IMG/VR virus record: IMGVR_UViG_3300045256_000094
Origin: a virus
Reading direction: 5' to 3' (one strand)
Length of the DNA: 64,000 nucleotides
The translations under genes were made by a program, and so were the position numbers. Below, one piece after another: positions 1 through 59,643 of this stretch (positions are counted from its first letter, which is position 1; each line of letters opens with the position of its first letter). The notes beneath the pieces were generated by a model, which worked only from the letters and a program-made list of their open reading frames with translations, searched no databases and was not told the DNA's origin.

Positions 1-214
1 CGCATCGCAGTCGGGGCACTGCCATGCGCAAATCTCGCCGTTGTTCTCGAACCACGTCCAACCCTTTTCGGGTTGAAACGTCTCCATCCCAGCGGCGGTG
101 GTCGGGTAGTTCGGCATCTGCTTGTCGCAGTCGAGGCATCGGCCCTCCACGAGAGAGCGGGCGTGCCGTTCCTCAATCCGTTGCAACATCTCCGCAACGC
201 CCTCGGGCAAGGCG

Positions 215-538
215 TCAGGCGGCATGTCCCCCACACAGATCACCTGACAGCCCGGATGCCGCTTCTGGAGTTCTTCCAGAATCACCGGCGGCACATCCGC
301 TGCCTTCGCAGGCTGCATCAGAGTCAGGTCGTCGTGCGGCGGCATTGGTGCGTACCTCGATGGCTTCCATCTCGTCTTCGGAGATGTCGTTCTCGATTGC
401 GACTTGTGCGGCGGCGGCGTAGAACGGCTGCATCACCAGACCAAACGTTCGGTCGCTCAGCGAGTCAGCCAGTTCCTCACACCTATCCGCCATTCGGAAG
501 ATCAGTTCCAGTTCCTTGATCGCTTCCTGCTTTGTCAT
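215..538 (-). CDS. hypothetical protein. The N-terminal half is protein-like. The C-terminal half is low-complexity, so a frameshift or over-extension is possible.
   Basis: The ORF overlaps the upstream gene by 56 nt. There is no recognisable motif. Confidence 0.3.
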   Translation of the reverse strand: MTKQEAIKELELIFRMADRCEELADSLSDRTFGLVMQPFYAAAAQVAIENDISEDEMEAIEVRTNAAARRPDSDAACEGSGCAAGDSGRTPEAASGLSGDLCGGHAA

Positions 539-938
539 CCGTGAACCTCAATCCGTTGATGTATTCTTTCAGTTCGGCGATGTCCTTCTCCGCAGCCTCC
601 CTGGAGGAGTAGTCCATCACCGGCAGCATCTCCTGCATGATCGCTTGGATGATGCCTAGCGGCCGGTCCGGCTTGGCGATGATCTTGCCCCGGTAGCCGA
701 GGGCCAGGACCGATTTGTCCCGCTCGTCGCACTGGCCGATTGCGGCCAATTGGACGTAGAGGCGGTTCGTCCGTTTGATCTCCGTGCTGGTATCCACGAC
801 GCCCGCCACCGGCTCAGGCTTCACCGCCTTCATCGGCTTCTTACACTTGTCACACCGGGGTGTGCCCATGTAGTCGGCCGGGACTTTCTGTTCCGCCTTG
901 CAGGTCGGACAGCGGTACGTCGTCTTCTTGGACATCAC
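483..938 (-). CDS. hypothetical protein with an N-terminal zinc ribbon
   Basis: The motifs CPTC and CDKC sit in the first 35 aa. A 4-nt overlap (ATGA) with the upstream LCCL-domain gene suggests translational coupling. Confidence 0.5.
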   Translation of the reverse strand: MMSKKTTYRCPTCKAEQKVPADYMGTPRCDKCKKPMKAVKPEPVAGVVDTSTEIKRTNRLYVQLAAIGQCDERDKSVLALGYRGKIIAKPDRPLGIIQAIMQEMLPVMDYSSREAAEKDIAELKEYINGLRFTDDKAGSDQGTGTDLPNGG

Positions 939-1846
939 TCCCTCACGAATTCGTATGCGCCCGTCGGGAAGTTACCGTACTGGATTGTCGTGACCCCGTT
1001 GTTCGTGGTCGCCTCGAACGTGGCGGGCGAGTTGACGATGCGAATCCTCAGCACCTTCGTCTCGCCGACCTGCAAAAGACCACCGTGGACAGCAGCCACG
1101 GCAATCTTCGAGTCTAGCGTGTAAGGCCCGCTCCCCCAGACGCCAGCCCCGCTTGCTTCCGGGGCGGCACCTGTCACCTTGAACCAGAACTCTGTCCCGA
1201 ACTTGCTCTGGTAGTCCGGGGTGTTCAAGTTGGTCGGGGCGGGTTTGGCGTTCTCCTCCACGGCGTTCGGGAGCTTGATCTTGTCGATATCCCACAGGCG
1301 GACCGTTTGCTCGCCGAACGGCCCGGTCTTCACCTTCAGTGAATCCGCCTTGATCGTCCCGGCGATCTTCGAGTCCTCGGTGATGACCACATCCAGCGGC
1401 CGGACTGTCAGGTTGCTGTGCCGCCCCTTCAGGTAAGTCACCACTTCACCGGCCCGCCGTGAAACCTCCGGGTCGCTGCTCTTGGCGGCTGTCTCCGAAC
1501 AGACCGGGAAGGCACGAGGGCCGATCTTCTTCAGGGCCAGCGTGGCGTCCTCTCGGGCGGCGAAGTCGGGGTGGCCCAGCTTCGACACGCACTTGGCGAT
1601 GTCGTCCTGCATGGCGGGCGACGTGCGGGTGGCGAACTCGATCCCCTTCACTAAATGCGAAGGCACCTTCAACTCGCCGTACTTCGTATTCAGGGTGATG
1701 GACTCGTCCAGCAACGTCACACGGACGTGGCTGCCGTCCACACAGACTACCTCGACCAGTGGCGGAACCACGGCCTCCTTTTGTTGCGGGGGTGCGGGGG
1801 TCGCACACACGAGGGTCGAGAGAAGCAGGGTGGAAGTCAACATCAC
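935..1846 (-). CDS. secreted protein with a C-terminal LCCL-like domain
   Basis: There is a hydrophobic N-terminal signal (MMLTSTLLLSTLVCA). The C-terminal motif YTLDSKIAVAAVHGGLL matches the LCCL signature YTxDSxxCxAAVHxG. Confidence 0.55.
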   Translation of the reverse strand: MMLTSTLLLSTLVCATPAPPQQKEAVVPPLVEVVCVDGSHVRVTLLDESITLNTKYGELKVPSHLVKGIEFATRTSPAMQDDIAKCVSKLGHPDFAAREDATLALKKIGPRAFPVCSETAAKSSDPEVSRRAGEVVTYLKGRHSNLTVRPLDVVITEDSKIAGTIKADSLKVKTGPFGEQTVRLWDIDKIKLPNAVEENAKPAPTNLNTPDYQSKFGTEFWFKVTGAAPEASGAGVWGSGPYTLDSKIAVAAVHGGLLQVGETKVLRIRIVNSPATFEATTNNGVTTIQYGNFPTGAYEFVRE

Positions 1847-2121
1847 AGAATCCTTTCTGACTTCGCCTCTACAAACGGCGGATCAGTGTGAGGAAAAAGG
1901 GTAACACCTTCTCCGTGCGGGTGACACTTCTTCGTCGGTGTTACGACGAACGCCCTGGACGATTGATTCTTCGGGTCGCCCAGACCCTACCCGTTCATCA
2001 CGGGACGCATAGAACTCGTGAAGGCCGGACGCACTTTCGCTGGCCCGTCATAACCTCCCGTTCCTACGAGCGGTACGGACGGCTGTTCGGGGTTTTGACC
2101 CAGCGAGTTACATCTGACCAG

Positions 2122-2192
2122 TGGAGCTACCGGGATTCGAACCCGGAATACCACAATGCCATTGTGGCGTGATCCCGTTTCACTATAGCCCC
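2122..2192 (-). tRNA. tRNA-Ala (anticodon GGC), with an encoded CCA
   Basis: Hand-folded cloverleaf. It carries the G3:U70 Ala identity pair and the anticodon loop AUGGCAU. The plus strand shows the reverse complement of the T-arm (GGGATTCGAACCC). Confidence 0.7.
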
Positions 2193-2334
2193 ATCTTACA
2201 CTATCTGCCCATCAGCGGCAGGCATCCAAACACAAACACACTCGGCACCAACACAGCACCGACGAACACACCGATCCAGAAGTACCCGCTCGACAGCATG
2301 TCGAGGAATGCGGCGAAGATCATAGCTACCTTTC

Positions 2335-2556
2335 TTACACTTCGAATTTCTGGTCGAAGTGTTGTATTACGTCTTGTACCATACCACGCAGGTCTTCAAT
2401 TGGCAACCCAAATTGACCTGCGACTGCGGCGATCTTGTTGTGCCCGGAGTAGTCCACCATCTCTTGTAAGAGTTGGGCGACGGTGAGGCGGTGCCCTCGG
2501 AGGCAAGGTCTGCCGCCACACCGATCCGGGTCAGTCCATATGTACTTCGTGTTCAT
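2335..2556 (-). CDS. DUF433-family protein (antitoxin-like)
   Basis: The N-terminus MNTKYIWTDPDRCGGRPCLRGHRLTV is typical of DUF433. Confidence 0.5.
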   Translation of the reverse strand: MNTKYIWTDPDRCGGRPCLRGHRLTVAQLLQEMVDYSGHNKIAAVAGQFGLPIEDLRGMVQDVIQHFDQKFEV

Positions 2557-2750
2557 GACCGGATGTAAATCTCGCCGCAGTCCTTACACCCGTAGGACAG
2601 GTTGTCCGTCCACAGGTTCTTGCTCCCGCACTTCATGCACCGGCCGGTGTAGTCGCCGGTCGGCTCGTTGCGGGGGTTGTTCTTCCGCCGCTGGTAGTCC
2701 AGGTCTTTGTCCGGCGGCGGACCCATGTCCCCGAATTCGTCGTCCATCAC
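2553..2750 (-). CDS. zinc-ribbon protein
   Basis: It has CMKCGS and CKDCGE motifs. It overlaps the downstream gene by 4 nt. Confidence 0.4.
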   Translation of the reverse strand: MMDDEFGDMGPPPDKDLDYQRRKNNPRNEPTGDYTGRCMKCGSKNLWTDNLSYGCKDCGEIYIRS

Positions 2751-3280
2751 TTTGCCTTCAGTTGGACGTAGATGAACTTCGGTGCTTCTTCAGTGAAGTA
2801 GAGCCGAAGGGCCGGGCACAGCCAGCACTCCTCGCCCTCCATCATACCCGGCGTCACCGACTTGTAAACGTCGCCTTTCCGCTCGTGCCGCTGCCATTCG
2901 AGGACGATCTGGTTGCCGGGGAAGGGCACGGCCGAGAACAACATTACGAAGTCCTTCTTTCTGCCCAAAAGAGCCAGAGCCGCCGTCTCGATCATCGTGT
3001 CGGCACCGGCGACGAACGGCTCCTTGTCGAGCAGCCGTGCCTCGTCGTCGAAGACCCACAGCCCGTTCCATTCGTAGGGGGCGATGGCGAAGATGCTGTT
3101 CATGGTCGGAGTCCTTTCCTCTTCTGACCACGACGGCCTCGCATGAACAGCGAGGATGCCGATGGTCAGGATAAACAGCCCGTAGAAGGGCCAGAACAAG
3201 TAGTTGATCCACGGGTGGGACTCGCCGTAGGCGATCCACACCACTTCAACGAGAAGGGCTACGATGGAAACGTAGCCCAT
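2747..3280 (-). CDS. membrane protein, hypothetical
   Basis: There are hydrophobic N-terminal segments. The start was moved to an internal Met to avoid a 47-nt overlap. Confidence 0.4.
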   Translation of the reverse strand: MGYVSIVALLVEVVWIAYGESHPWINYLFWPFYGLFILTIGILAVHARPSWSEEERTPTMNSIFAIAPYEWNGLWVFDDEARLLDKEPFVAGADTMIETAALALLGRKKDFVMLFSAVPFPGNQIVLEWQRHERKGDVYKSVTPGMMEGEECWLCPALRLYFTEEAPKFIYVQLKAK

Positions 3281-3290
3281 GTAAGTCAGG

Positions 3291-3917
3291 TTAGCATTTG
3301 ATGTCGTCGAGACATCCGTGGACGTAGGAGTCTTCATAGCGACGGCGGTACTCTTCGAGGAAGTCGGTCAGTTCCCGGTCGGTCATCTTCTGAAGGTCTT
3401 TGCCCTTCGTCGTGACGACGCTCTCGTGGTGAACACCCGGAGGCCAGGGCTGGCCGTTCAACATCAGAGTATACACTTCGCCGCCGAGCGGCGTAACGGA
3501 GTGCCACGCCTTCGGATCGACGATCTCGTACCGGCTGCCCGATACTTGGAGTTGACGGTAGACCGGCCACGGCGTCTTCTGATCCAGGGTCGCCGTGTAC
3601 CCGACGTTCATCAGGTACTTGCCGTGGATGATACAGAACGCACCGGGCCACGGGTGCGGGTGCATGAACGACTCGCTCTCGTCGCACTCCTCGAACTTGT
3701 GCAGGCAGACCCGGTAGTTCCCGAACTGGCAGAACACCCGGTATGTGTGCGGCTTGCGGCGATTGATGATGAGCGAGTTCCAGTCGCTCAGCTTCACTGT
3801 GTACAACAGCATCGGCAGCTTCGCTACGACGTAGTTCAGCTTCCCGAGGTAGGTGGGGATGGCATCAAGCTCGTCCCCGAGCCGGTACTGAAGGTCTTCA
3901 TCCAGTTCGATCATCGC
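3291..3917 (-). CDS. hypothetical protein, possibly a cupin-like fold
   Basis: His-rich motifs HPHPWPGAFCIIHGKY and WHSVTP are present. The assignment is weak. Confidence 0.35.
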   Translation of the reverse strand, partial: AMIELDEDLQYRLGDELDAIPTYLGKLNYVVAKLPMLLYTVKLSDWNSLIINRRKPHTYRVFCQFGNYRVCLHKFEECDESESFMHPHPWPGAFCIIHGKYLMNVGYTATLDQKTPWPVYRQLQVSGSRYEIVDPKAWHSVTPLGGEVYTLMLNGQPWPPGVHHESVVTTKGKDLQKMTDRELTDFLEEYRRRYEDSYVHGCLDDIKC

Positions 3918-3981
3918 TCGCTCCTTCGTCCTGGGCGACTCCTTTAGTGGGTACAAGCCCTGGACAGCTATCTTTCAAAAA

Positions 3982-4075
3982 TGCGGAGGCGTGGGATTCG
4001 AACCCACGCTTCGGTGGCACCACCCATAGGGTTGTGGACGGGACTCGACCCCCGTCACGGTTGCGCTCCACCTAC
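3982..4075 (-). ncRNA. tRNA-like element(s). There is a canonical T-arm and 3' acceptor strand (GUGGG-UUCGAAU-CCCAC-GCCUCCG). The core is aberrant and a second degenerate T-arm hairpin follows.
   Basis: The acceptor CGGGGGU/GCCUCCG pairs. No canonical D or anticodon arm could be folded by hand. Confidence 0.35.
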
Positions 4076-4091
4076 ACCGCCGGTAATACCC

Positions 4092-4424
4092 TCAACCGGC
4101 CCCGCTCGGCTCCGGCTTGTTGCCGTGTTCCATGAGTTGCAGTGCCGCAATGAGCGGCAAGGCGAACGCCCAAAGGAGGGTGAAGACGAAGCCCTCCAGA
4201 ATGTAACCCCAGCCCGGCCAGCGAGGCTTGAAGTCGCTCCACTTGGCGTTCTTCCAATCGTTGATCTCGTACTGAATCCAGCCCATCGCCGCTTTGGCAT
4301 CGTCCGTCAGATGCTTCTTGGCGATGGTGCCGAAGGCGACGGCGTTCGACTTCAGGCCGTGCCCGCCGTCGCTGTTCTTCAAATAGGTCTGGTAGTCTTT
4401 GTGCGTTTCGTTAAGCATGTTCAA
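4092..4424 (-). CDS. membrane protein, hypothetical
   Basis: A GGAGG RBS lies 6 nt upstream. The C-terminal half is hydrophobic. Confidence 0.5.
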   Translation of the reverse strand: MNMLNETHKDYQTYLKNSDGGHGLKSNAVAFGTIAKKHLTDDAKAAMGWIQYEINDWKNAKWSDFKPRWPGWGYILEGFVFTLLWAFALPLIAALQLMEHGNKPEPSGAG

Positions 4425-4581
4425 CCTCCGTGTCGGTGGATGTGTTATATCCTAGTTTCGCCCCTAAATCAACGCCTCCGAGAATCCCACAAAAGTGCGG
4501 GCCACATCAGGGGGCAGACGACACAGAGGATGGAGTACGCCATCACGAGGACGACGAGCCAGAAAACGAAGAAACGCCGCA

Positions 4582-4773
4582 TCAAAGACTCCACGGGCCG
4601 TACTTGCGTTCCCGTTCGTCTTCGGCGGCTTGCCTGACAGCAGATGATTTGGCTTGTTTGCGACCGGCTTCGTAGGCCATCTTCATGAAAGCCTTGACCG
4701 CATCGGCGTTGTAGGTGCCGGGGTCTGGGGCGTTTTCCTTAAGCCACTGGTCACGTTCGAATTGATCTAACAC
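4582..4773 (-). CDS. hypothetical small protein
   Basis: The ORF lies immediately downstream of tRNA-Pro. Confidence 0.3.
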   Translation of the reverse strand: MLDQFERDQWLKENAPDPGTYNADAVKAFMKMAYEAGRKQAKSSAVRQAAEDERERKYGPWSL

Positions 4774-4797
4774 AATCTGCCTCCATGCAGAAATCAG

Positions 4798-4871
4798 TCA
4801 GGGTGACAGGATTTGAACCTGCAACATCCTGCTCCCAAAGCAGGCGCTCTACCAAGTTGAACTACACCCTG
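4798..4871 (-). tRNA. tRNA-Pro (anticodon UGG)
   Basis: It has C1-G72, which is typical of Pro, the anticodon loop UUUGGGA and the T-arm GCAGG-UUCAAAU-CCUGU. Confidence 0.7.
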
Positions 4872-5134
4872 TTCTCTAACCTGTCCGTGACTTCATCATA
4901 GCGAGTTTCGAGTTTTTCAACAAGAATTTCGTCACGACGAATGGCAGCGGCATCGGCTAGACATTCTTCTTCAGTCGGACCTTCACCGGCGTTGACCATC
5001 CTGATCGCCTCGGTGAAATCCGCATCGCACTTCTCGCACCCGCCGCCGCTGCACGAGATGTTGCCGCACTCGGGGCAACGGATTCTTGGGCAGCGGCAGA
5101 GGCTACACCAAACCCAACGTCCTGCAAACTTCAT
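4862..5134 (-). CDS. zinc-ribbon protein
   Basis: Several CxxC motifs are present (CPECGN, CEKCD). Confidence 0.35.
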   Translation of the reverse strand: MKFAGRWVWCSLCRCPRIRCPECGNISCSGGGCEKCDADFTEAIRMVNAGEGPTEEECLADAAAIRRDEILVEKLETRYDEVTDRLENRV

Positions 5135-5349
5135 AGGCAGTGGTCGTATGTGTAAGTGTCCGGTAAGTAGATATACCGCTTGCGGTGACTTTTCGGCTTC
5201 TTGCCGTACACCCGCTCACGGAAGGACTTGTCTCGTCCGCACACCGGGCACTCCCCGACGTGCATCCTGTACCAATGTTTCTTTACCGGCTTACGTTTTG
5301 TAGCGGGCATTGGCGATCCTTGCCTTGTGTTCGAAGTAGCGTTTCTCAA
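5131..5349 (-). CDS. basic zinc-ribbon protein
   Basis: It contains CPVCGR and is Lys/Arg-rich. Confidence 0.35.
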   Translation of the reverse strand: MRNATSNTRQGSPMPATKRKPVKKHWYRMHVGECPVCGRDKSFRERVYGKKPKSHRKRYIYLPDTYTYDHCL

Positions 5350-5640
5350 CGTCGGTGGTCAAGTCCTTGAGCGGGATGTAAAGGCCGACCAGCCCCTCCC
5401 GCTTGAGTTCTTCGACCGTCGGTCCTTCGTGGACATACGGCTCGACGCCTTCGGGCAATCGGGACGCAGCCACCGGGTCTACCCAGGTTGACTGCCTCGG
5501 CTCGCCCAGGAACTCAGAGCCTTGAATCTCGAAGGTCGGAAGCACGTTGCCGACGTGGTAAACAGTCACAACGCACTCCTGTTTCGTGGGACTAGCAGCT
5601 TGGCATCCTGCCTCACGGGGTCGTCCCTTAGTTTAGTAAA

Positions 5641-5715
5641 AGTGGACGTATCCGGCCTCGAACCGGAACAACGGGTGTAGCACCACGGCATTTATGACCA
5701 CAGCCCGGTTAGGTC
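5641..5715 (-). ncRNA. degenerate tRNA-like element. It has a T-arm (UCCGG-UUCGAGG-CCGGA) but no matching 5' acceptor strand.
   Basis: The 3' acceptor-like strand pairs instead with a downstream hairpin. Confidence 0.25.
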
Positions 5716-5953
5716 AGTGGGGAACCCGACTTACGCCCATAGCTTTGAGGACGGCCGCTTCCTGATCTCGCAGGCGAACGTAGTCCTTTGCCATCGCAAC
5801 CAACAGTTCTTTCAACTCGGGAGAATCGCCGCCGAGAGCCTTGCAGTGGATGGAGATGTTGCCCCAATCCATTACAATCTCGGAGTTACCGCCGGTGCGG
5901 TCATCCATCTCTCGTGCGAGATGGTACATCCGGTCTTCCATCCTAGAAGCCAT
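5714..5953 (-). CDS. hypothetical protein
   Basis: ORF only. Confidence 0.35.
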   Translation of the reverse strand: MASRMEDRMYHLAREMDDRTGGNSEIVMDWGNISIHCKALGGDSPELKELLVAMAKDYVRLRDQEAAVLKAMGVSRVPH

Positions 5954-6194
5954 GCTCTCTCCAGTTGTGGACAGGTTCTTTCTGTTCCACTTCCAGTTTG
6001 CAGTTCTGGCAGACGACGAGCTTTTCTTCGTCCCACCAGTACATGTCCACCCACTCTGCCTCGGCCCAGACGTTTCTTGTGTAGTCGATCTCGCCGCAAA
6101 AACAGATGTCGCAACAGCGAGGAGACTTCTCCGGGTCAGAGAACAGGAGAGTGAACACTGAGTAGCCCCATGAGGAATCGAACCCCGTAAGCAA
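5943..6194 (-). CDS. zinc-ribbon protein ending in the shared C-terminal tail HNWREHGF
   Basis: It contains CCDICFCGE and CQNCK. Its C-terminal tail is shared with three other small proteins at 57.6-59.1 kb. Confidence 0.4.
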   Translation of the reverse strand: MLTGFDSSWGYSVFTLLFSDPEKSPRCCDICFCGEIDYTRNVWAEAEWVDMYWWDEEKLVVCQNCKLEVEQKEPVHNWREHGF

Positions 6195-6232
6195 CTTTAG
6201 AAGAGTCGCCGCTGCCCAGCAGTGAGGCCATG

Positions 6233-6349
6233 TTTATTTAACCAACAACCAGATGATTACCCCGATCAGGCCGAGGATAATCGCCGCCACTACGACCAGG
6301 AAGATTCCGAATCTCGTCGCCAGGGCGTGAATGATCGCTTCAGGAACCA
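6233..6349 (-). CDS. small tail-anchored hydrophobic peptide (~38 aa)
   Basis: It translates as MVPEAIIHALATRFGIFLVVVAAIILGLIGVIIWLLVK. It has two neighbouring paralogs. Confidence 0.3.
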
Positions 6350-6351
6350 TG

Positions 6352-6474
6352 TTATCTCACAAGCAAGTATATCACGACTGCGATCAGGACGATGATGATC
6401 CCTATGAGGGCGGCGATCAGCCGGGCCACGCCCTCGATCAGATCACCGATGCCGTCGAAGATGAACTTCGGGAT
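6352..6474 (-). CDS. small tail-anchored hydrophobic peptide (paralog)
   Basis: It translates as MIPKFIFDGIGDLIEGVARLIAALIGIIIVLIAVVIYLLVR. Confidence 0.3.
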   Translation of the reverse strand: MPKFIFDGIGDLIEGVARLIAALIGIIIVLIAVVIYLLVR

Positions 6475-6740
6475 CATAGCTCGACCACTCCATGTTCCAT
6501 CAGGACGCACATTATCATGTACTTCACGGACTCGTCGAAGCTGACTGTCCGTGAAGCCGAAGGAGTCCACGTCTTGAGGATGTCCTTCAACAGTTCCAGA
6601 TCGTCGTCGGCGTGCTTCTCGGTGTACTCTTCACTGAACTCAATCCCGCCGGTCTTCAGCCCGTGCAGTTTGAGGCAGATGTCGCACACCGAGCGGCCTG
6701 CTTGTCGAACCCGGCAGTCGCCACGACTGATCTGTAACAT
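6474..6740 (-). CDS. hypothetical protein
   Basis: ORF only. Confidence 0.35.
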   Translation of the reverse strand: MLQISRGDCRVRQAGRSVCDICLKLHGLKTGGIEFSEEYTEKHADDDLELLKDILKTWTPSASRTVSFDESVKYMIMCVLMEHGVVEL

Positions 6741-6745
6741 CCTGT

Positions 6746-6868
6746 TACCTCACACAGATGTAGATCACCAGACCGATGACGGTCAAGCCGAGCAGGACGA
6801 TCAGCCCACACCCGAACTTGAACATCTTGTCCAGACCTTCACCAATCCCATCCGCAAAGCTCGCCATC
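6746..6868 (-). CDS. small tail-anchored hydrophobic peptide (paralog)
   Basis: It translates as MASFADGIGEGLDKMFKFGCGLIVLLGLTVIGLVIYICVR and shares the DGIG(D/E) motif with its neighbour. Confidence 0.3.
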
Positions 6869-7399
6869 TTCGTCTACCTCGTTGATAGTTGCCGGGTCGA
6901 TACAGGACTCAGCATACAACGAAGCGACGAAAGCGTCAACAGCGGGGTTGTTGTACTTGGCTGCCCGCTCGCTGAGTTCTCTCAGGAACTTGCGGCCCGC
7001 CGCCCCCTTGCTCAGAGCCACGGCCTCGTCCACGCTTTGCACGTTGTCGTACAACGAACACCGCTCGCACAGCCCTTCCTGGCGAATCTGACCGCACTGC
7101 ACGGGGCAGTCGTCGTAGCCGTACTTGCAGCCGTGGTAGGCACAGCAGTGGGACGGGCAGCAGGGGTGTTTTTTGACGAGAAGTTCGTACTCAGTGAGCG
7201 AACGAAGCTGGGCTTCGAACGCCACCATATCGAACTCGGGGTCGTTCTTCGCTTGATACTGCCGCTCGTCGGCGACGAGTTCTTGGATGAGTTGTTCCCG
7301 AAACTCGATGAGTTCTTCTTTGTGTTCGAAGTTCGGGTTGAACAAGATTTGCAGTTCGGCGGCTCGAATCTGCCGCTTCTTTTCTTCGAAGTCGTCCAT
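6839..7399 (-). CDS. Cys-rich hypothetical protein
   Basis: It contains the cysteine-rich stretch CCPSHCCAYHGCKYGYDDCPVQCG...CERC. Confidence 0.4.
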   Translation of the reverse strand: MDDFEEKKRQIRAAELQILFNPNFEHKEELIEFREQLIQELVADERQYQAKNDPEFDMVAFEAQLRSLTEYELLVKKHPCCPSHCCAYHGCKYGYDDCPVQCGQIRQEGLCERCSLYDNVQSVDEAVALSKGAAGRKFLRELSERAAKYNNPAVDAFVASLYAESCIDPATINEVDEDGELCGWDW

Positions 7400-7411
7400 G
7401 ACTTACTCCAG

Positions 7412-7482
7412 AGCTAGATGAGAGGATCGAACTCTCGATTCAATCTTACCAAGATTGCGTGATACCACTTCACTAATCTAGC
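7412..7482 (-). tRNA. tRNA-Thr (anticodon GGU)
   Basis: The acceptor is GCUAGAU/AUCUAGC. The anticodon loop is UUGGUAA and the T-arm is GAGAG-UUCGAUC-CUCUC. Confidence 0.7.
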
Positions 7483-7487
7483 ATAAG

Positions 7488-7559
7488 TCGGCGATGAGGG
7501 AATCGAACCCCCGACTCATCCGTGTAAAGGATACGGGTTGCCACTACCACCAATCGCCG
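7488..7559 (-). tRNA. tRNA-Val (anticodon UAC)
   Basis: The acceptor is CGGCGAU/AUCGCCG. The anticodon loop is UUUACAC. The D-stem is weak. Confidence 0.55.
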
Positions 7560-7986
7560 ATCTGAGCTTCCTTTCCAGGTCGCCAATCCAGATGCCGTTA
7601 TCTACGCACACCTGGAGATAATCCATTCCGATTTCTCTCGCCCCACCGTCGCACCGCTCGCTGTCGCCAACCATCAGGCACTTCTTCGGGTCAACCTGCA
7701 TGAAGTCAGTGACACGCCGGAAGGTCGCCGGGTTCGGCTTTACCTCTTCGTCCTTGTAGACGCCGAGGATCAGTTCGAAGTACCTGAGCAGGTCGTAACT
7801 TTGCAGTTTCGTCCGCAGCCACAGGCTGTCGGAGTGTTGCTGCGTGTTACTGATGACCGCCAGCCGGTAGCCCCGATGGTACAGGCTCGGGATCAGCCCG
7901 TGCAACTCGTGCGGGACGTTGAGGAACTTGCTCTTGTCGAGGAAACCCAGCGTGCCGCCGTAGTCGAAAATAATCGCTTCGTACAT
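7516..7986 (-). CDS. HAD-superfamily hydrolase
   Basis: It has motif I FDYGGTL and motif IV VGDSERCD. Its 3' end runs 44 nt into tRNA-Val. Confidence 0.6.
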   Translation of the reverse strand: MYEAIIFDYGGTLGFLDKSKFLNVPHELHGLIPSLYHRGYRLAVISNTQQHSDSLWLRTKLQSYDLLRYFELILGVYKDEEVKPNPATFRRVTDFMQVDPKKCLMVGDSERCDGGAREIGMDYLQVCVDNGIWIGDLERKLRSAIGGSGNPYPLHG

Positions 7987-8070
7987 AGTTCATTAGGGGT
8001 GCAGGACTCACACCTGTCTTCCTCCCGTCTAGCCGACGGGCGTGCTTGATTGCTATACACCAACCCCCAG

Positions 8071-8142
8071 AGCGACGTGCGGGAGTCGAACCCGCCTTAA
8101 CCTACTTGGGAAGCAGGTGCCCAGCCGCTAGGCCAACGTCGC
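8071..8142 (-). tRNA. tRNA-Gly (anticodon CCC)
   Basis: The G1-C2-G3 acceptor and U73 are typical of Gly. The anticodon loop is UUCCCAA. Confidence 0.7.
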
Positions 8143-8143
8143 A

Positions 8144-8365
8144 TTATTTGCAGATGGCGTATCCAATCGCCACCACCAGTCCGATCACCAGCAGGATGAT
8201 CGTCACGCCTGCGATCAGCAGGCAGCCCAGGAGTCCCTGGAACAACCGGAATCCGCCTTCAATGAAGTCAACCGGGTCGTCCAGCGGGTTCGGCTCAGAG
8301 AAGCAACGTACCCCTGGCTGCATCCAACCGATCAACAAAAACGGTAGAATCCAAGTCATCGACAT
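8144..8365 (-). CDS. tail-anchored membrane protein (same family as the 6.2-6.9 kb peptides)
   Basis: It has an FIEGGF motif and a C-terminal transmembrane segment. Confidence 0.35.
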   Translation of the reverse strand: MSMTWILPFLLIGWMQPGVRCFSEPNPLDDPVDFIEGGFRLFQGLLGCLLIAGVTIILLVIGLVVAIGYAICK

Positions 8366-8491
8366 CCTCCGTGACTTTCGGACAGCCGAGTGCCTTGAAG
8401 CACGACCAACAGGCTGCCGTCATCTCGCCGTCTTTCTTGACGGCGAACTGGTCTGTGTAATCTTCACAGACTCCACAATTGTAACAAACGC

Positions 8492-8923
8492 TCAACAACA
8501 CCCCTTCACACCGCACTTGTCCGGGGCGAGGCAGGCAGTGTTCTTCAAACTCGTTATCAGGTTCAGTCCCCGGTTCTCCGTCAAATGAGTAGAGAACAAC
8601 GAGTAGACCCCCAGCGTCTTTCCATCCGCCTGATACTCGACCGTCACTTCGGTATCGAGATCAATGAACTTGACGGCGTGCCGCAGAATGTCCAAAAACT
8701 TCTTCGCCTTCAGGCGATGATCCGTGTCGTTCGCCACCCAAATCTGGAGGGCACACGTTGTCGTCTCACGCATCGAGCCGCCGCAGTCCACAAACTTCTT
8801 CGTAACCAACCCGACTTCCGTTAGATGGAAATGGGCCGGAGCGAAGCCTGCATCCGGGAAGTAGATGTTTACCGGCAGGTCGTCTGCACGAGAGAGTGCG
8901 TCAACCAGATCGATCAGTTTCAT
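8492..8923 (-). CDS. hypothetical protein
   Basis: A 143-aa ORF with no confident motif. Confidence 0.4.
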   Translation of the reverse strand: MKLIDLVDALSRADDLPVNIYFPDAGFAPAHFHLTEVGLVTKKFVDCGGSMRETTTCALQIWVANDTDHRLKAKKFLDILRHAVKFIDLDTEVTVEYQADGKTLGVYSLFSTHLTENRGLNLITSLKNTACLAPDKCGVKGCC

Positions 8924-8936
8924 AACAATTCCTAAG

Positions 8937-9007
8937 AGCGGGATAGGGGAATCGAACCCCTCTCTGTAGCTTGGAAGGCTACGGCACGGCCACTATACCA
9001 ATCCCGC
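8937..9007 (-). tRNA. tRNA-Gly (anticodon UCC)
   Basis: The acceptor is GCGGGAU and the anticodon loop is CUUCCAA. Confidence 0.7.
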
Positions 9008-9216
9008 ATTATTCAATGTAAGGCCCGACGAATCCGCACTTCACACAGTAGAGGCAGGGCAAGTCGCCTTCTTCTTCTATGTGACCGCCCTCTTCAAAAA
9101 GCCGAGCCTTGCACTTCGGACATCGCTCGTCATCGCCTAACAGTTCACGCTTGATCTTGTCTTCAGGCCCGTACTTGATCCCGTTTTTGACGAAGTAAGG
9201 CATGATGTCCCAGCCT

Positions 9217-9510
9217 TTACTTGATGAGCATCGACGCCAGCCCGAGTAGCACCGCCATCAGTAGCACGATGATCCCGAACGTCGGCTTCGGCTCGACCTG
9301 GGCCTGCTTGTTCTCGTACTCTTCGGCACAGCGAGGGTCGTAGACGAGGTTGAAGGCCCAATCCAGGTCTTCTTCCGCCAGCCGACCCCAATCTTCGTTG
9401 AGTTCGTAGATCATGGCGAGGACTGCCGCCCTGGTGGCGACTTCTTCCTCGGGTGCTTCCTTTAGGATCAGGATGCCCGTGCGGATCGCATTCCTTACGT
9501 TATCCGGCAC
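9217..9510 (-). CDS. tail-anchored membrane protein, hypothetical
   Basis: It has a C-terminal transmembrane segment. Confidence 0.35.
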   Translation of the reverse strand: MPDNVRNAIRTGILILKEAPEEEVATRAAVLAMIYELNEDWGRLAEEDLDWAFNLVYDPRCAEEYENKQAQVEPKPTFGIIVLLMAVLLGLASMLIK

Positions 9511-9516
9511 TATTGT

Positions 9517-9714
9517 CTACTCCATGACAAGGTTGAGCAGGGCTTCGCAGGCAAGCCAGATCACAGTGAAGACGACGAGCAGCAGGTACGGTATCCACAC
9601 TATGATGGCGAACGACCATATCTGCTTGGCGTATTCCTTAACCGGAGAGCCGTATTCTGGTGGCGTGATCCCACGTTTCAGATGGAACCAGAACCACTTC
9701 AGGACACGCTTCAT
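9517..9714 (-). CDS. small membrane protein
   Basis: The ORF has a hydrophobic core. Confidence 0.3.
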   Translation of the reverse strand: MKRVLKWFWFHLKRGITPPEYGSPVKEYAKQIWSFAIIVWIPYLLLVVFTVIWLACEALLNLVME

Positions 9715-9729
9715 GCTCTCATCCTTAAG

Positions 9730-9802
9730 AGCGGGTGATGAGACTCGAACTCACGACATTCACGTTGGCAACGTGACGCTCTACCAACTGAGCTACACCC
9801 GC
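9730..9802 (-). tRNA. tRNA-Gly (anticodon GCC)
   Basis: It reads GCGGGUG-UA-GCUCAGUUGGUAGAGC. The anticodon loop is UUGCCAA. Confidence 0.75.
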
Positions 9803-9804
9803 AT

Positions 9805-10110
9805 TTACTTCGAATGCTCCCCATGCTCGACGTAGTATAACTCTTCGCCCAGGTCAGGGAACTTCTTCTTGTACTTATCGACCAGGGCGAGCAGCCGTCT
9901 GGTCTGAGCCATCTTCTCTTCGGCCTCGGTCGGCGTCGTCACGCTCTCGATAATCATGTGGACATCGACGAGTTGCCCGTCCATGTTCCAACGTACCGTG
10001 AGCCGGTTCCCCACCAGGGTGACGCCGAACTCCTTACCGACCTTCTGCCTCATCTGTTCCAGAACATAAGCAACTTCCTTGCTATGTTCCATCTCGTAGA
10101 CTGAAGGCAT
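9805..10110 (-). CDS. hypothetical protein
   Basis: ORF only. Confidence 0.35.
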   Translation of the reverse strand: MPSVYEMEHSKEVAYVLEQMRQKVGKEFGVTLVGNRLTVRWNMDGQLVDVHMIIESVTTPTEAEEKMAQTRRLLALVDKYKKKFPDLGEELYYVEHGEHSK

Positions 10111-10127
10111 GTCAGACTCCGATTAAG

Positions 10128-10198
10128 AGCGGCATAGGAGAATCGAACTCCTGTCACTAGCATGGCAAGCTAGGGCACAACCACTATACCAATGCCGC
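10128..10198 (-). tRNA. tRNA-Gly (anticodon GCC), second copy on a different scaffold
   Basis: The acceptor is GCGGCAU and the anticodon loop is UUGCCAU. Confidence 0.65.
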
Positions 10199-10205
10199 AT
10201 CTGAG

Positions 10206-10277
10206 AGGCCCGAGTGGGAATCGAACCCACGATTGACGATTTTGCAGACCGCCGCCTTACCACTTGGCTACCGGGCC
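10206..10277 (-). tRNA. tRNA-Cys (anticodon GCA)
   Basis: U73 is the Cys discriminator. The anticodon loop is CUGCAAA. Confidence 0.7.
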
Positions 10278-10288
10278 ATCACTACTAT

Positions 10289-10750
10289 CTAAGTTATCAC
10301 ACCTGCTTTTTGTTCGCAAGACTGATGAGGACATTTCCCGTAAATGGCAATCGCCATATTACAGTTGTGACACAGCACCCGCAGGTCTTCTCTAATCTCT
10401 TCTCTCCGCAACTTCAAGAACCAAGAGTAGGTGGAGTTTTGGTTTCTACCATACAACGCCCTTCTCTCAACGTTCCCGTCGTTGTTTTTGTGGTCTATGG
10501 CAAGGAACTCGACACGAGCTTCTTGACAACACTCACACTTGCCGCCGTATTTTTCAAGAACCTCGCACTTGATCTTGTGCCGATATTCTTTCTGTTTCGG
10601 CTTAACACGGTCAACGTGTTTGGCATTCCACTCTACAAAGTAACGAAGACACGCTTCGCACTTCTTTCTGCCTTCCTTTGGCTCAGCTTTACCGCATTTG
10701 TTACACAAGCCTGCGGCTTCTAGCTTTTGACGACGATCTGGACTTCCCAT
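10289..10750 (-). CDS. HNH endonuclease
   Basis: The HNH zinc-finger pattern CxxC...FLAIDHKNNDG...CHNCN is present. Confidence 0.65.
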   Translation of the reverse strand: MGSPDRRQKLEAAGLCNKCGKAEPKEGRKKCEACLRYFVEWNAKHVDRVKPKQKEYRHKIKCEVLEKYGGKCECCQEARVEFLAIDHKNNDGNVERRALYGRNQNSTYSWFLKLRREEIREDLRVLCHNCNMAIAIYGKCPHQSCEQKAGVIT

Positions 10751-10765
10751 GTCCTATCTATGCTT

Positions 10766-11152
10766 TCAAGTGCCGTTCGCACTTAAATCTTTACGATTTG
10801 CCACCGTTATGTGAAACTTGTTTCTCCACCACGGGAACGGGGCAAGACCAAGTTCGACCCTGATCTCGCACAACCGCTGGCATTGCACATTCAGCCAGTA
10901 ATACCGTTCGTCCCAGACGATCTCCGGGCTATACTCGATCTCAACCTCGTGACCGTCGTACTTCTTCCACACGTCCATGTTCGGCGGCTGTTCCCGCCGC
11001 ACCACGCTGACGTGAGCCTGATACCGCTGCGGGTTCCGGGGCCACGCCCTCGGGATCAGTGAGCGGTAAAAGTCTGCGATGCCCTGATCGACATTCAACA
11101 CCACCCGATTCGTAGTCGGGCCGTATTCCAGAATGCCGACCGCCTTGTGCAT
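10766..11152 (-). CDS. hypothetical protein
   Basis: ORF only. Confidence 0.4.
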   Translation of the reverse strand: MHKAVGILEYGPTTNRVVLNVDQGIADFYRSLIPRAWPRNPQRYQAHVSVVRREQPPNMDVWKKYDGHEVEIEYSPEIVWDERYYWLNVQCQRLCEIRVELGLAPFPWWRNKFHITVANRKDLSANGT

Positions 11153-11158
11153 CGTTCC

Positions 11159-11617
11159 TCACTTCAGGACGATGATCTCGTCCACAATCTCTGCCCCGCA
11201 CGCCCTGGCGGTGCGGTAAATGTTCGTGGCGGCGTCAAACACCTTCGGCACGAACGTGTACCCTTTCTCTGTCTTCAGGAACATCAGGGAGTCGCCCATG
11301 ATGCTGATGAGCTTGTTGCCCTCTTCCTTCGCCGCTTCGAGCGTGTCGAAGTAATGCGGCACGAAGTCGAAGCCCGTTACCGTCAGGTTGCCCTCTTTGC
11401 GGCTGCCCTGCTTGTAATACTTGGCCTTGAACCGTGCCTTGATGCGAGGTAGTTCTTCGATCATCGGCTCGTAGCTCCAGGGCTTGACCTTCTTGCCGGT
11501 CGCCTTCTCGTGTTCCCGGATGATCCGGTCGGCGACCAGAGTCATCGGGTCGCACGTCGTCTGTCCGTTCATGAACTCAATGTTCATTTGGCGGAACAGC
11601 GGGTCTGTTGTTCTCAT
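11159..11617 (-). CDS. hypothetical protein
   Basis: The start was trimmed to MRTTDPLF so the CDS abuts tRNA-Lys with a 3-nt gap. Confidence 0.45.
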   Translation of the reverse strand: MRTTDPLFRQMNIEFMNGQTTCDPMTLVADRIIREHEKATGKKVKPWSYEPMIEELPRIKARFKAKYYKQGSRKEGNLTVTGFDFVPHYFDTLEAAKEEGNKLISIMGDSLMFLKTEKGYTFVPKVFDAATNIYRTARACGAEIVDEIIVLK

Positions 11618-57619: not shown

Positions 57620-57949
57620 ATGGAAAACGAGGAGCTTACCTACATACCCCTGGAAACCAACGACGAGTTCTTCGACGGGTTTCACGGTGCTTACGACGAA
57701 GTGATGGAAGCGATCTTCGTCATTCTCGCCATCCCTTCCGAGTTATACAACAGAAACGGTAACAGCTACCCGGCGAACGCCCTCGCCTCCATACTGCTTA
57801 CACAACCACTGATGCTCCGGCACGAGGCTCGAATGGCACTACCAAATCTCGACTTCTCCGACCTTGTTGGCGATTACCCCGAATTCGAGGACATCGCAGA
57901 GGATGAGGAAGTGTTCACCAAAGTAAATTGGAAAGAGGAGGGGTTTTGA
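57620..57949 (+). CDS. small acidic protein ending in VNWKEEGF
   Basis: ORF with the shared C-terminal motif. Confidence 0.4.
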   Translation: MENEELTYIPLETNDEFFDGFHGAYDEVMEAIFVILAIPSELYNRNGNSYPANALASILLTQPLMLRHEARMALPNLDFSDLVGDYPEFEDIAEDEEVFTKVNWKEEGF

Positions 57950-58464
57950 ATCCCAACGACAAGTCTATCATCATGCTGATCTTGGCTTACCCCGACATGC
58001 AAGTCACCGAGCGGGATCAGCTATTCACACAACTCCACGACACATCCTTGAAAAATATCTGCTTAGTTGCCCTCGGCGAGCTAGATATAGAAGTCCTTGA
58101 CGAACCCGACCGCAGTTGCGCTATCGAACTGGCTCGGGAGGCGAAGGCGAGAATCGAAAGAATCCGCCAGCAGCAGATCAAGGCCAGGAGAGAGAACGTG
58201 ATGACGCCGCTTGCCGAGAAACTGACTCGGCTCCACCGCCAGGGCAAAGTGCCCGAGAAGATGTTAATCATCTACGGGGTGTCCGGCACCATCCCGTTCC
58301 GCCACCCGGTCGAAAACCGGAACCTGACCTACGAAGAGAAGGTCGCCGTCCTGCAACAGCGAATGGAGCGGCGGTTCGGCGTCCGGTGGCGTGAGCGATT
58401 CCACGAACTACCCGAATGGCTGGGTGGTGGAGAGAAAACCAATTGGGTTAACGAGGGGTTCTGA
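57946..58464 (+). CDS. hypothetical protein ending in NWVNEGF
   Basis: An AGGAGG RBS is present. A TTG start is inferred, so the start is uncertain. Confidence 0.35.
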   Translation: MNPNDKSIIMLILAYPDMQVTERDQLFTQLHDTSLKNICLVALGELDIEVLDEPDRSCAIELAREAKARIERIRQQQIKARRENVMTPLAEKLTRLHRQGKVPEKMLIIYGVSGTIPFRHPVENRNLTYEEKVAVLQQRMERRFGVRWRERFHELPEWLGGGEKTNWVNEGF

Positions 58465-58862
58465 TGACATTCCGTGAATTCATGCAGCTTGATGAACAGC
58501 CCAACGTGCTGTTCGACCAGCCGGTTCAGATCGTCGTGGACATTGACGGCAAACCGCAGAAGTTCACCGTTGACATCATTGACGTGCGGGCCGAGGACTG
58601 GACCCAGACCCAGGTCCGCACCGCCGACGGGATCGTAATGTCCACCGCCCCGAAGACCCTCTCAGGCTTCCAGCCGTTCTCCCTGCCCCTTGCCAACGGC
58701 CAGTTCATCAACCACGACGCCTGGAGCGGCAATACCATCAGTGCAGAACCACTGAAGACCATCGCCCGGAAGGATTGGGCGAAGTTCGCTCAGTTCGTTC
58801 TCGGCGACAAGGTGGTGAAAGGTCCGCTGGCCCAACGTGACTACGATGCGAAGGTCGGCTAA
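58464..58862 (+). CDS. hypothetical protein
   Basis: ORF only. Confidence 0.4.
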   Translation: MTFREFMQLDEQPNVLFDQPVQIVVDIDGKPQKFTVDIIDVRAEDWTQTQVRTADGIVMSTAPKTLSGFQPFSLPLANGQFINHDAWSGNTISAEPLKTIARKDWAKFAQFVLGDKVVKGPLAQRDYDAKVG

Positions 58863-59137
58863 AAGCCTTCGTCCTTCCAATTGACGTGTTCGACCGTTTC
58901 GATCTTCCGCCGGTTCTGAAACCGCACCAGTGCGATGCGTGCCATCGCCAGAGCGTACAGGTTCCGGCGGGTATACTCTTCGTCTATGATCGCCTGCCGC
59001 CGCCGGTCCTCGGCGTCCCGCTGTTCACGCTCTCTTCTCTCCCGCCGCTCCTTGAAGTAATGTAAGACGCCCTGGTAGATGACGAAGGTCATCATCCAGA
59101 TGGCGAACACGATGATCGTGGGTGCGTCGAGGGTCAC
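58859..59137 (-). CDS. membrane protein ending in VNWKDEGF
   Basis: It has an N-terminal transmembrane segment and a charged middle region. Confidence 0.4.
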   Translation of the reverse strand: MTLDAPTIIVFAIWMMTFVIYQGVLHYFKERRERREREQRDAEDRRRQAIIDEEYTRRNLYALAMARIALVRFQNRRKIETVEHVNWKDEGF

Positions 59138-59643
59138 GGTTTAACTGAGTAAAACACAAGGCGGGCCTATACCCAGGGTTCTGTTCCGGTTTCCCGGCAG
59201 GTTACATTTATCTCGGCCTTGCGACCGGGCAGTCTATTACGACACGCCTGCACCAACCCGCATCTATAACGTGCCGCTCACGCACACGATGCTGTTTGGC
59301 TTGCCACGGCTGTAGTCAAAGCGATACTCCCTTTCGGTTTCTCTCCTACAGCGAGCGGAGTGGCCCTGAAGTTCCTCTAGGCTTGACGCCCAGCGTAACC
59401 TCGGCCCGCCTTGTGTACCCCAGAATACACGATTTGGAAAAAAAGTAAATCGCCGCTTTACTTCGTCCCGGTGTCAGCTACTATAGGGATGTCTCGCCGA
59501 CTACTCGTCCCGGCGGGCTGGGCCTCGAAACCCAGCGGGGAATGCTGGTGGGACTACATAACGACGTGCCATAGGGGGAACCCGCCATGAAGAACACCGA
59601 ATTCACCTAGAACGACAACAACCTCGCCGCCCTGGTCCCGGCG

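Follow-up and report, generated by a model that had tools for sequence, protein, structure and literature searches.

A short C-terminal peptide with the consensus (V/I/T)-(N/D)-W-x-x-E-G-F-COOH ends many otherwise unrelated small proteins of what looks like a large uncultured clade of T4-type (T4-like) jumbo phages, and it very probably acts as a docking or targeting tag. We describe it from a 64,000-nucleotide stretch of viral DNA, IMG/VR record IMGVR_UViG_3300045256_000094 (the window, always meant at its full length), in which four small open reading frames (ORFs), p1 to p4, carry it. We lean slightly towards the view that the tail is a clade-wide sorting code, one that a single co-evolving receptor would read and through which, in each genome, tens of unrelated small proteins would reach the same place. 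The clients would include membrane-anchored proteins and domesticated capsid fragments, and the tail, present in a few planctomycete elements too, would be the C-terminal counterpart of the T4 capsid targeting sequence (CTS), with a new receptor. To our preferred mechanism, a docking tag recognised by a phage-encoded receptor of head assembly, we assign a probability of roughly 0.4.

Huge phages encode mostly small ORFs of unassigned role. A portable seven-residue tag groups dozens of them per genome into one functional class and offers a direct experimental handle toward receptor, localisation and packaging. The motif, its C-terminal position and its set of clients are new; shared terminal targeting or docking peptides are already known as a kind. 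In the searchable literature we found no description of such a motif, nor the peptide strings themselves.

Four tailed genes in the window

The first-pass annotation of this DNA had claimed a common tail on four unrelated small proteins, and the ORF translations of the window bore this out: all four ORFs are present, and their C-termini share an NWxxEGF-type heptapeptide. Gene p1 (57620–57949, plus strand, 109 aa), the first of a small plus-strand operon, ends in ...VNWKEEGF, with NWKEEGF encoded at 57926–57946. It is followed by p2 (57946–58464, plus strand, 172 aa), a predicted all-helical protein of a new family that ends in ...TNWVNEGF (NWVNEGF at 58441–58461), and by a third gene without a tail, pX (58464–58862, plus strand, 132 aa). 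Only p3 and p4 among the tail genes lie on the minus strand. The former (58859–59137, 92 aa) is convergent with pX, has no downstream gene and encodes a hydrophobic N-terminal helix and a charged helix ahead of the tail ...VNWKDEGF (NWKDEGF at 58862–58882). The latter (5943–6194, 83 aa) lies within a tRNA-rich region, is Cys-rich (CxxC...CxxC) and ends in ...HNWREHGF (NWREHGF at 5946–5966).

Six-frame translation of the whole window yielded exactly four occurrences of NW...GF, each immediately followed by a stop codon, and likewise exactly four of W...GF plus stop. The DNA pattern AAYTGG-N9-GGNTTYTRR matched four times, against 0.00 expected from 100 dinucleotide-preserving shuffles, so the concern that the motif might occur at random frequency does not hold within the window. 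All four genes have a coding-like composition (GC content of 0.65–0.80 at third and 0.30–0.38 at second codon positions). In pairwise BLAST comparisons the alignments were limited to the final 7–13 residues; therefore, apart from the tail, the proteins are unrelated. The tail codons vary among the four copies (AAT/AAC, GAG/GAA/GAC/CAT, GGG/GGC, TTT/TTC and TGA/TAG).

Selection on the peptide and its spread

The consensus has an invariant Trp(-6), Gly(-2) and Phe(-1), and Glu(-3) is kept in about 95% of cases, with a preference for Asn or Asp at -7 and for a hydrophobic residue at -8. Across 82 tails, third codon positions drift freely: Asn is encoded by AAT in 36 and AAC in 26 cases, Glu by GAA in 41 and GAG in 38, Phe by TTT in 43 and TTC in 39, and Gly by GGA in 27, GGT in 20, GGG in 20 and GGC in 15. 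This synonymous drift, together with the differing codons of the window copies, confirms the earlier suggestion of protein-level conservation: the tail is selected as a peptide.

The same codons can also serve translation. The p1 stop overlaps the TTG start of p2, the p1 tail codons GAG GAG GGG double as a Shine-Dalgarno sequence for p2, and the p1 and p2 tails (GAGGAGGGG and GAGGGG) both stand at Shine-Dalgarno distance from the next start. A coupled ORF follows 50 of the 82 tails, mostly through TGATG or TAATG. One could thus regard the peptide as an incidental by-product of GAR-GGN-TTY-TRA-TG, a Shine-Dalgarno sequence with a stop/start overlap, but we consider this extremely unlikely. In 32 of the 82 cases (32 of 56 when one tandem array, L210, is left aside) no ORF starts at -4 to +15 nt and the tail is equally intact, 29 of the 32 ending in EGF; therefore it is not merely a Shine-Dalgarno by-product. 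Nor would such a signal account for Trp, Asn/Asp and Phe, for the convergent position of p3 or for variation limited to synonymous third positions, and the tail is also kept in data consisting of protein sequences alone (see the p2 family below). The tail codons do double as a Shine-Dalgarno sequence, yet the tail does not owe its existence to this.

The position of the motif was examined in 131 kb of DNA found by protein homology rather than by the motif (the window and four other loci, L254, L257, L258 and L261; L-numbers are labels of other tail-bearing loci or contigs compared with the window). There, [ND]W...GF occurred 27 times at a C-terminus and never internally. The looser.W...GF had 34 terminal and 3 internal occurrences, the internal rate being equal to that of a control (162 kb of phage DNA) in which no terminal copy occurred.

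A profile search with the p2 family (hidden Markov model, E<=1e-3, 1.84 billion cluster representatives) matched 62 relatives, in long and short forms. The W...GF end is kept in 63 of 67 collected family sequences; the four exceptions are one fragment and the near-variants ...DWRSLGL, ...NWKVGL and ...NWKEGF. Between a conserved RMExRFGxxWRxxF helix and the tail, the linker varies in length by about 8–25 residues. AlphaFold2 gave a confident all-helical model of p2 (predicted local distance difference test score 91.7), in which the score of the final ~12 residues falls to 65 and then 43; the p2 tail is thus flexible in the model. Neither a fold nor a sequence match to p2 was found in the PDB, no match in Pfam or PHROG, and a neighbouring 1252-aa protein was likewise without a match in the PDB.

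These observations bear on a further explanation, that the tail is a C-terminal degron through which a protease of host or phage would remove the carriers at a set time, as with ssrA -LAA and ClpXP or non-polar tails and FtsH. The strict need for a free C-terminus (the motif is only terminal) and the diversity of clients, membrane-anchored ones included, would fit, as would a gene pair for an AAA+ ATPase and a DUF2201 metallopeptidase-like/VWA protein that adjoins the p1–p3 module in the window and L254. The pair is missing from the same position in L257 and L266, however, and the motif is charged or acidic, unlike known bacterial C-degrons. Moreover, retention in 63 of 67 p2-family sequences suggests a role in function and not in turnover alone. 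A degron is therefore improbable.

Carriers from one genome share the residue after Trp (position -5) much more frequently than chance would give: agreement was 0.55, against 0.16 in the null (p<0.0005). In L254, for instance, three tails read W(I/M)KEGF, and in L258 two read WKIEGF. This concordance suggests a co-evolving receptor.

To see how widely the tail occurs, IMG/VR was scanned with a DNA pattern for NWx(D/E)EGF plus stop. The 25 loci found are near a hand-estimated chance number; 21 of them are ends of real ORFs of 76–192 aa, with several tails on some contigs and an extended consensus of (K/E)(V/T/I)NWxEEGF. The identical pattern was run against 596 Gb of bacterial and archaeal DNA, one genome for every species (185,579 in all), and gave 103 matches, nearly all of them in short random frames or reading through TGG. 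About 6 of the 103 close long ORFs and 3 look genuine; the others are NuoE-like and YraN-like housekeeping proteins, probably matched by chance, and a 76-aa ORF of uncertain status. The motif is thus nearly absent from cellular genomes and restricted to viruses, a few planctomycete elements aside.

The three genuine-looking matches are acidic proteins on Planctomycetota chromosomes (L061 4829–5488, L073 2335–3222 and L082 4284–5255). A macrodomain gene stands beside those of L073 and L082, an orphan N6/N4 methylase gene lies at L073, and large uncharacterised proteins are encoded around them. They may point to the range of hosts, or to other mobile elements with which the tag has been exchanged.

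In metagenomes we observed at least 72 ORFs of at least 60 aa with a terminal W...GF. The pooled and de-duplicated set holds at least 82 different carriers, with a median length, among those listed, of 143 aa and a range of 60–322 aa; 63% of the 82 are net acidic. The viral and metagenomic contigs concerned span 33–60% GC. Most carriers have no Pfam or PHROG match, and those with recognisable domains comprise a DnaC-like loader (L204), MORN-type and other repeat proteins, zinc-ribbon proteins, transmembrane (TM)-anchored proteins and fragments of capsid proteins.

Tail genes can also form arrays. Contig L210 (MDTG01031237.1, 1–12724) carries 27 consecutive, translationally coupled genes for proteins of about 160 aa, all ending in W(Q/E)(Q/K)EGF, and the related L261 (ENA ERZ28655656 scaffold_170, 1–11468) contains 24 tandem tail genes, likewise translationally coupled. 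Taken together, the array proteins have about 140–170 aa, all end in W(Q/E/A)(Q/K/E)EGF and are mostly faint paralogues, with two unrelated repeat proteins among them.

Searches for relatives elsewhere gave negative results. A 5.8-billion-protein database queried with 40-residue C-termini yielded no candidates, and no tails were seen in 40-kb pieces of the cultured relatives LR745206, RsoM2USA, XacN1 and LR756511. Among 50,697 phage records the window had no megablast match, and p2 and its 459-aa neighbour had no tblastn match.

Candidate receptors and destinations

According to the mechanism we propose, the tail would be a short linear motif that closes many unrelated small accessory proteins, each time behind a flexible linker, and one common receptor would recognise the free Phe-carboxylate plus Trp(-6). 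All carriers would thus be gathered at one place or machine. The receptor would be phage-encoded and part of head assembly, either the scaffold core or the inner face of the gp23-type shell, and the tag would single out small proteins, hypervariable as a set, to be built into the prohead or fastened to it. Through carriers with a membrane anchor, the growing head would be held at the membrane. Both the existence of a single receptor and its identity we infer, and the prohead is named as docking partner only tentatively. What favours a receptor in head assembly is that the phages are T4-type, that hypervariable genes stand in tandem arrays, that some carriers are capsid fragments and that tails co-vary within genomes.

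The closest parallel is the T4 CTS, which is common to otherwise unrelated small internal proteins and sends them to the scaffolding core (PMC3012670). Like the CTS of IPI, IPII, IPIII and Alt, the tail belongs to T4-type phages and is a short terminal peptide on hypervariable, unrelated small proteins (here more than 80 carriers) from plastic tandem loci; in addition, carriers and their neighbours match gp23-type capsid proteins. The two sequences are unrelated, the tail is exclusively C-terminal and needs a free end, some of its carriers are membrane-anchored, and its role in packaging is a proposal. If the receptor does lie in the prohead, T4-type phages would have reinvented cargo targeting at the opposite end of the protein, and engineers would gain in the tail a C-terminal encapsidation signal ready for use.

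Several carriers are associated with capsid-protein fragments. Pfam Gp23 matched three carriers, in each case only a fragment (profile positions 1–48, 148–186 and 303–336) followed by a linker and the tail. At the position of p1, L254 (9447–10004, plus strand) and L266 (9342–9629, plus strand) encode a tail protein with the gp23 C-terminal motif GYxGxxxMDSGYFxxPxxP. At the position of p3, L254 (11064–11462, minus strand) encodes a TM helix, a gp23 N-arm segment (ISIPLVRRIYPQLIA..VQPL..PTG) and the tail. In 172 phage records the N-arm segment matches bona fide major capsid proteins, and it shares 61% identity with that of LR756511, an intact capsid protein of 497 aa without a tail; the segment would correspond to the T4 "Gol" region, which binds EF-Tu. 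Besides L254 and L266, the loci with tail-bearing gp23-type pieces are L007 (6060–7054, plus strand), L025 and L249. Altogether the fragments cover the N-arm or "Gol"-like, E-loop/spine and C-terminal motif segments, and one is TM-anchored and one internally duplicated.

A split gene, intron or intein as the source of these fragments was ruled out. The pieces lie on opposite strands or beside unrelated next genes, and one is internally permuted or duplicated; they are therefore domesticated capsid fragments and not exons of a split gene. That capsid-protein fragments should bear the tag is curious in itself.

Several observations weigh against a receptor in head assembly. In about 10% of carriers a TM helix stands at the N-terminus, with basic residues after it (L254 p3', a 63-aa protein of L266, p3 of the window, and carriers in L006, L013, L172, L222 and L226). 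This arrangement would place the tail on the cytoplasmic face of a membrane anchor, so such proteins could not be internal capsid cargo. Capsid genes are not visible in the tail-bearing elements of Planctomycetota, and the T4 CTS is N-terminal, has about 10 residues and is cut by the prohead protease at LxE ((L/I)xE). All-against-all clustering of neighbours in 42 loci showed no recurrent partner family beside the tail genes, and no receptor was found. The motif was not found in the cultured phages searched. Finally, sigma-70-like hexamers upstream of the p1–p2 operon were read by eye in the window, L254 and L258 and, if real, suggest early rather than late expression; a formal promoter scan called no plus-strand site there in the window.

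The same features could be read differently. The tail might bind early proteins of various kinds, concerned with host takeover or anti-defence, to a single machine that is abundant in the host cytoplasm, for instance a protease ring or unfoldase, RNA polymerase, the ribosome or EF-Tu, or the client sites of single-stranded DNA-binding protein (SSB), in a mode akin to the SSB C-terminal tip, the acidic Phe-tails of T7 gp2.5 and gp4 or the chemoreceptor NWETF. We regard this as doubtful, though almost as likely as head assembly because of the TM-anchored carriers, whose C-terminus would be cytoplasmic, the possible sigma-70-type promoters (read by eye, with the formal scan not confirming them) and the presence of the tail on non-T4-like elements of Planctomycetota chromosomes. 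Carriers are small, mostly net acidic and hypervariable and stand among accessory genes (ADP-ribosylglycohydrolase, macrodomain), which would also suit host takeover. Even the capsid fragments might act as decoys against capsid-sensing immunity, to judge from Lit/Gol and CapRel biology.

On the other side, no host protein with the motif at its end was found among the 185,579 species genomes; mimicry is therefore not obvious. No particular hub was found. The invariance of W, G and F across phages of 33–60% GC, together with co-variation of the -5 residue within genomes, fits a phage-borne receptor at least equally well. If a host hub were the receptor, the tag would expose a common point of attack in host takeover.

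The SSB tip (DDDIPF) and the T7 gp2.5 and gp4 tails have, like ours, an acidic end closed by Phe-COOH, and they serve, as ours would, as disordered docking handles. They occur, however, on one or two replisome proteins with many partners, whereas here many proteins are tailed; our motif adds the invariant Trp(-6) and Gly(-2), its carriers are not SSBs, and only one, the DnaC-like loader, is replisome-like. The chemoreceptor NWETF, which tethers CheR and CheB, is likewise an Asn-Trp...Phe-COOH end on a flexible linker, and acts as a pure tether. It has W-x2-F spacing and is found only in methyl-accepting chemoreceptors, whereas the tail has W-x3-G-F spacing in all copies, a one-residue-shorter variant occurring once in the 67 p2-family sequences. 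There was no chemoreceptor domain among the carriers and no evidence for CheR. A sliding-clamp tail on the paradigm of T4 gp43, gp55 and gp33 was set aside: no carrier above about 350 aa was seen, and therefore no polymerase.

Encapsulin cargo peptides bind the inner face of an HK97-fold shell, and phage capsid proteins have that fold. As in our case, a short C-terminal peptide follows a flexible linker on unrelated proteins. These peptides are the precedent for C-terminal tagging in HK97-fold shells, and with a receptor in head assembly our tail would be their functional counterpart, or that of the CTS. The encapsulin consensus, however, is GSL-type and hydrophobic or basic, and the cargo genes lie beside the shell gene. 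Our tail has the consensus NWxxEGF and tens of carriers per genome, with no shell gene adjacent to the tail genes in the window or in 47 loci.

Another shell had been proposed in the first-pass annotation, which suggested that the tail may be a cargo-loading or docking tag for MVP, here a vault-like shell, or else a recognition tag for the ubiquitin-like (Ubl) machinery. The general idea of a tag stands, given a terminal, conserved peptide on a flexible linker in more than 80 unrelated proteins; for the two receptors no support was found, and we consider either very improbable. It is true that the window encodes MVP (30590–33343), TROVE plus Ro60-vWA (36615–38204), ThiF/E1 (26822–27553), Prok-JAB (27508–28209) and a weak match to Prok-E2_D (29331–30539), all on the minus strand, and that other protein shells use C-terminal tags. 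Homologues of MVP, ThiF/E1, E2 and JAB were, however, absent by tblastn (E<=1e-4) from about 0.42 Mb of tail-bearing loci on ~47 other, partly visible contigs, and no close MVP relative was confirmed in IMG/VR. In the window itself the tail genes lie at least 24 kb from the MVP gene and more than 27 kb from the E1, E2 and JAB genes.

The carriers themselves also speak against these two receptors. Vault cargo docks on MVP via a folded INT domain of about 160 aa, and ubiquitin-like modifiers are beta-grasp proteins with a Gly-Gly end. The tail resembles neither, and no MVP homologue accompanies it in the tail loci outside the window, as far as these are visible; p2 is all-helical in the AlphaFold2 model, and a flexible tail of 7–9 residues ends in G-F. 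The N-terminal TM helix of about 10% of the carriers does not suit soluble cargo. Independently of the tail, the window unites a vault-like and a Ubl-like gene set in one phage (26822–38204, minus strand). Phage MVPs are reportedly the subject of a 2023 bioRxiv preprint (10.1101/2023.11.10.566534).

Genomic setting

The window has a GC content of 58% and about 79 genes with high GC at third codon positions, nearly all on the minus strand. Its right third is syntenic with the lineages L254/L255, L257, L264 and L266, with p2 identities of 30–41%. The shared order begins with a sigma-70-like gene, an Amidoligase_2 gene and genes for a small TM protein and a protein of 1,025–1,252 aa; in the window and L254 only, the DUF2201 and AAA+ pair comes next. 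Divergently transcribed p1, p2 and sometimes pX follow, and the order ends with a TM-anchored tail protein, a phrog_14850 protein and an ADP-ribosylglycohydrolase. The phrog_14850 protein gives a distant link to XacN1, RsoM2USA, Xoo-sp13, the GAP32/CBB group and an uncultured 635-kb phage.

Homologues of pX were observed in L254 and L258 and, weakly, in L266; none occurs in those portions of the remaining tail loci that are visible. As a universal receptor pX was rejected, being present only in the lineages of the window, L254 and L258.

Divergent neighbours of the p1–p2 pair in three loci (L003 9305–10234, L017 475–3207 and L264 8664–9572) share an N-terminal domain, ..NLxEIKxxRKRxxFLELIKNTExC..W.., and differ in their C-termini, which carry a VWA domain with DxSxS, YWTD/NHL-like repeats or other sequences. 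From their sequences, they look like exchangeable adhesin or decoration proteins.

Just upstream of p3, at 59154–59412 on the minus strand, we observed a match to the bacterial RNase P RNA class A model RF00010. It scores 63.7 bits, which is below the gathering score of 100 (E=1.9e-18), and spans model positions 1–367 within 259 nt. The segment resembles a gene for a shortened RNase P RNA-like molecule. The same phage DNA contains 53 tRNA genes, found by ARAGORN between 2121 and 35462, all on the minus strand with small ORFs interspersed; three have odd anticodon loops. An IF-1-like gene is located at 41565–41837.

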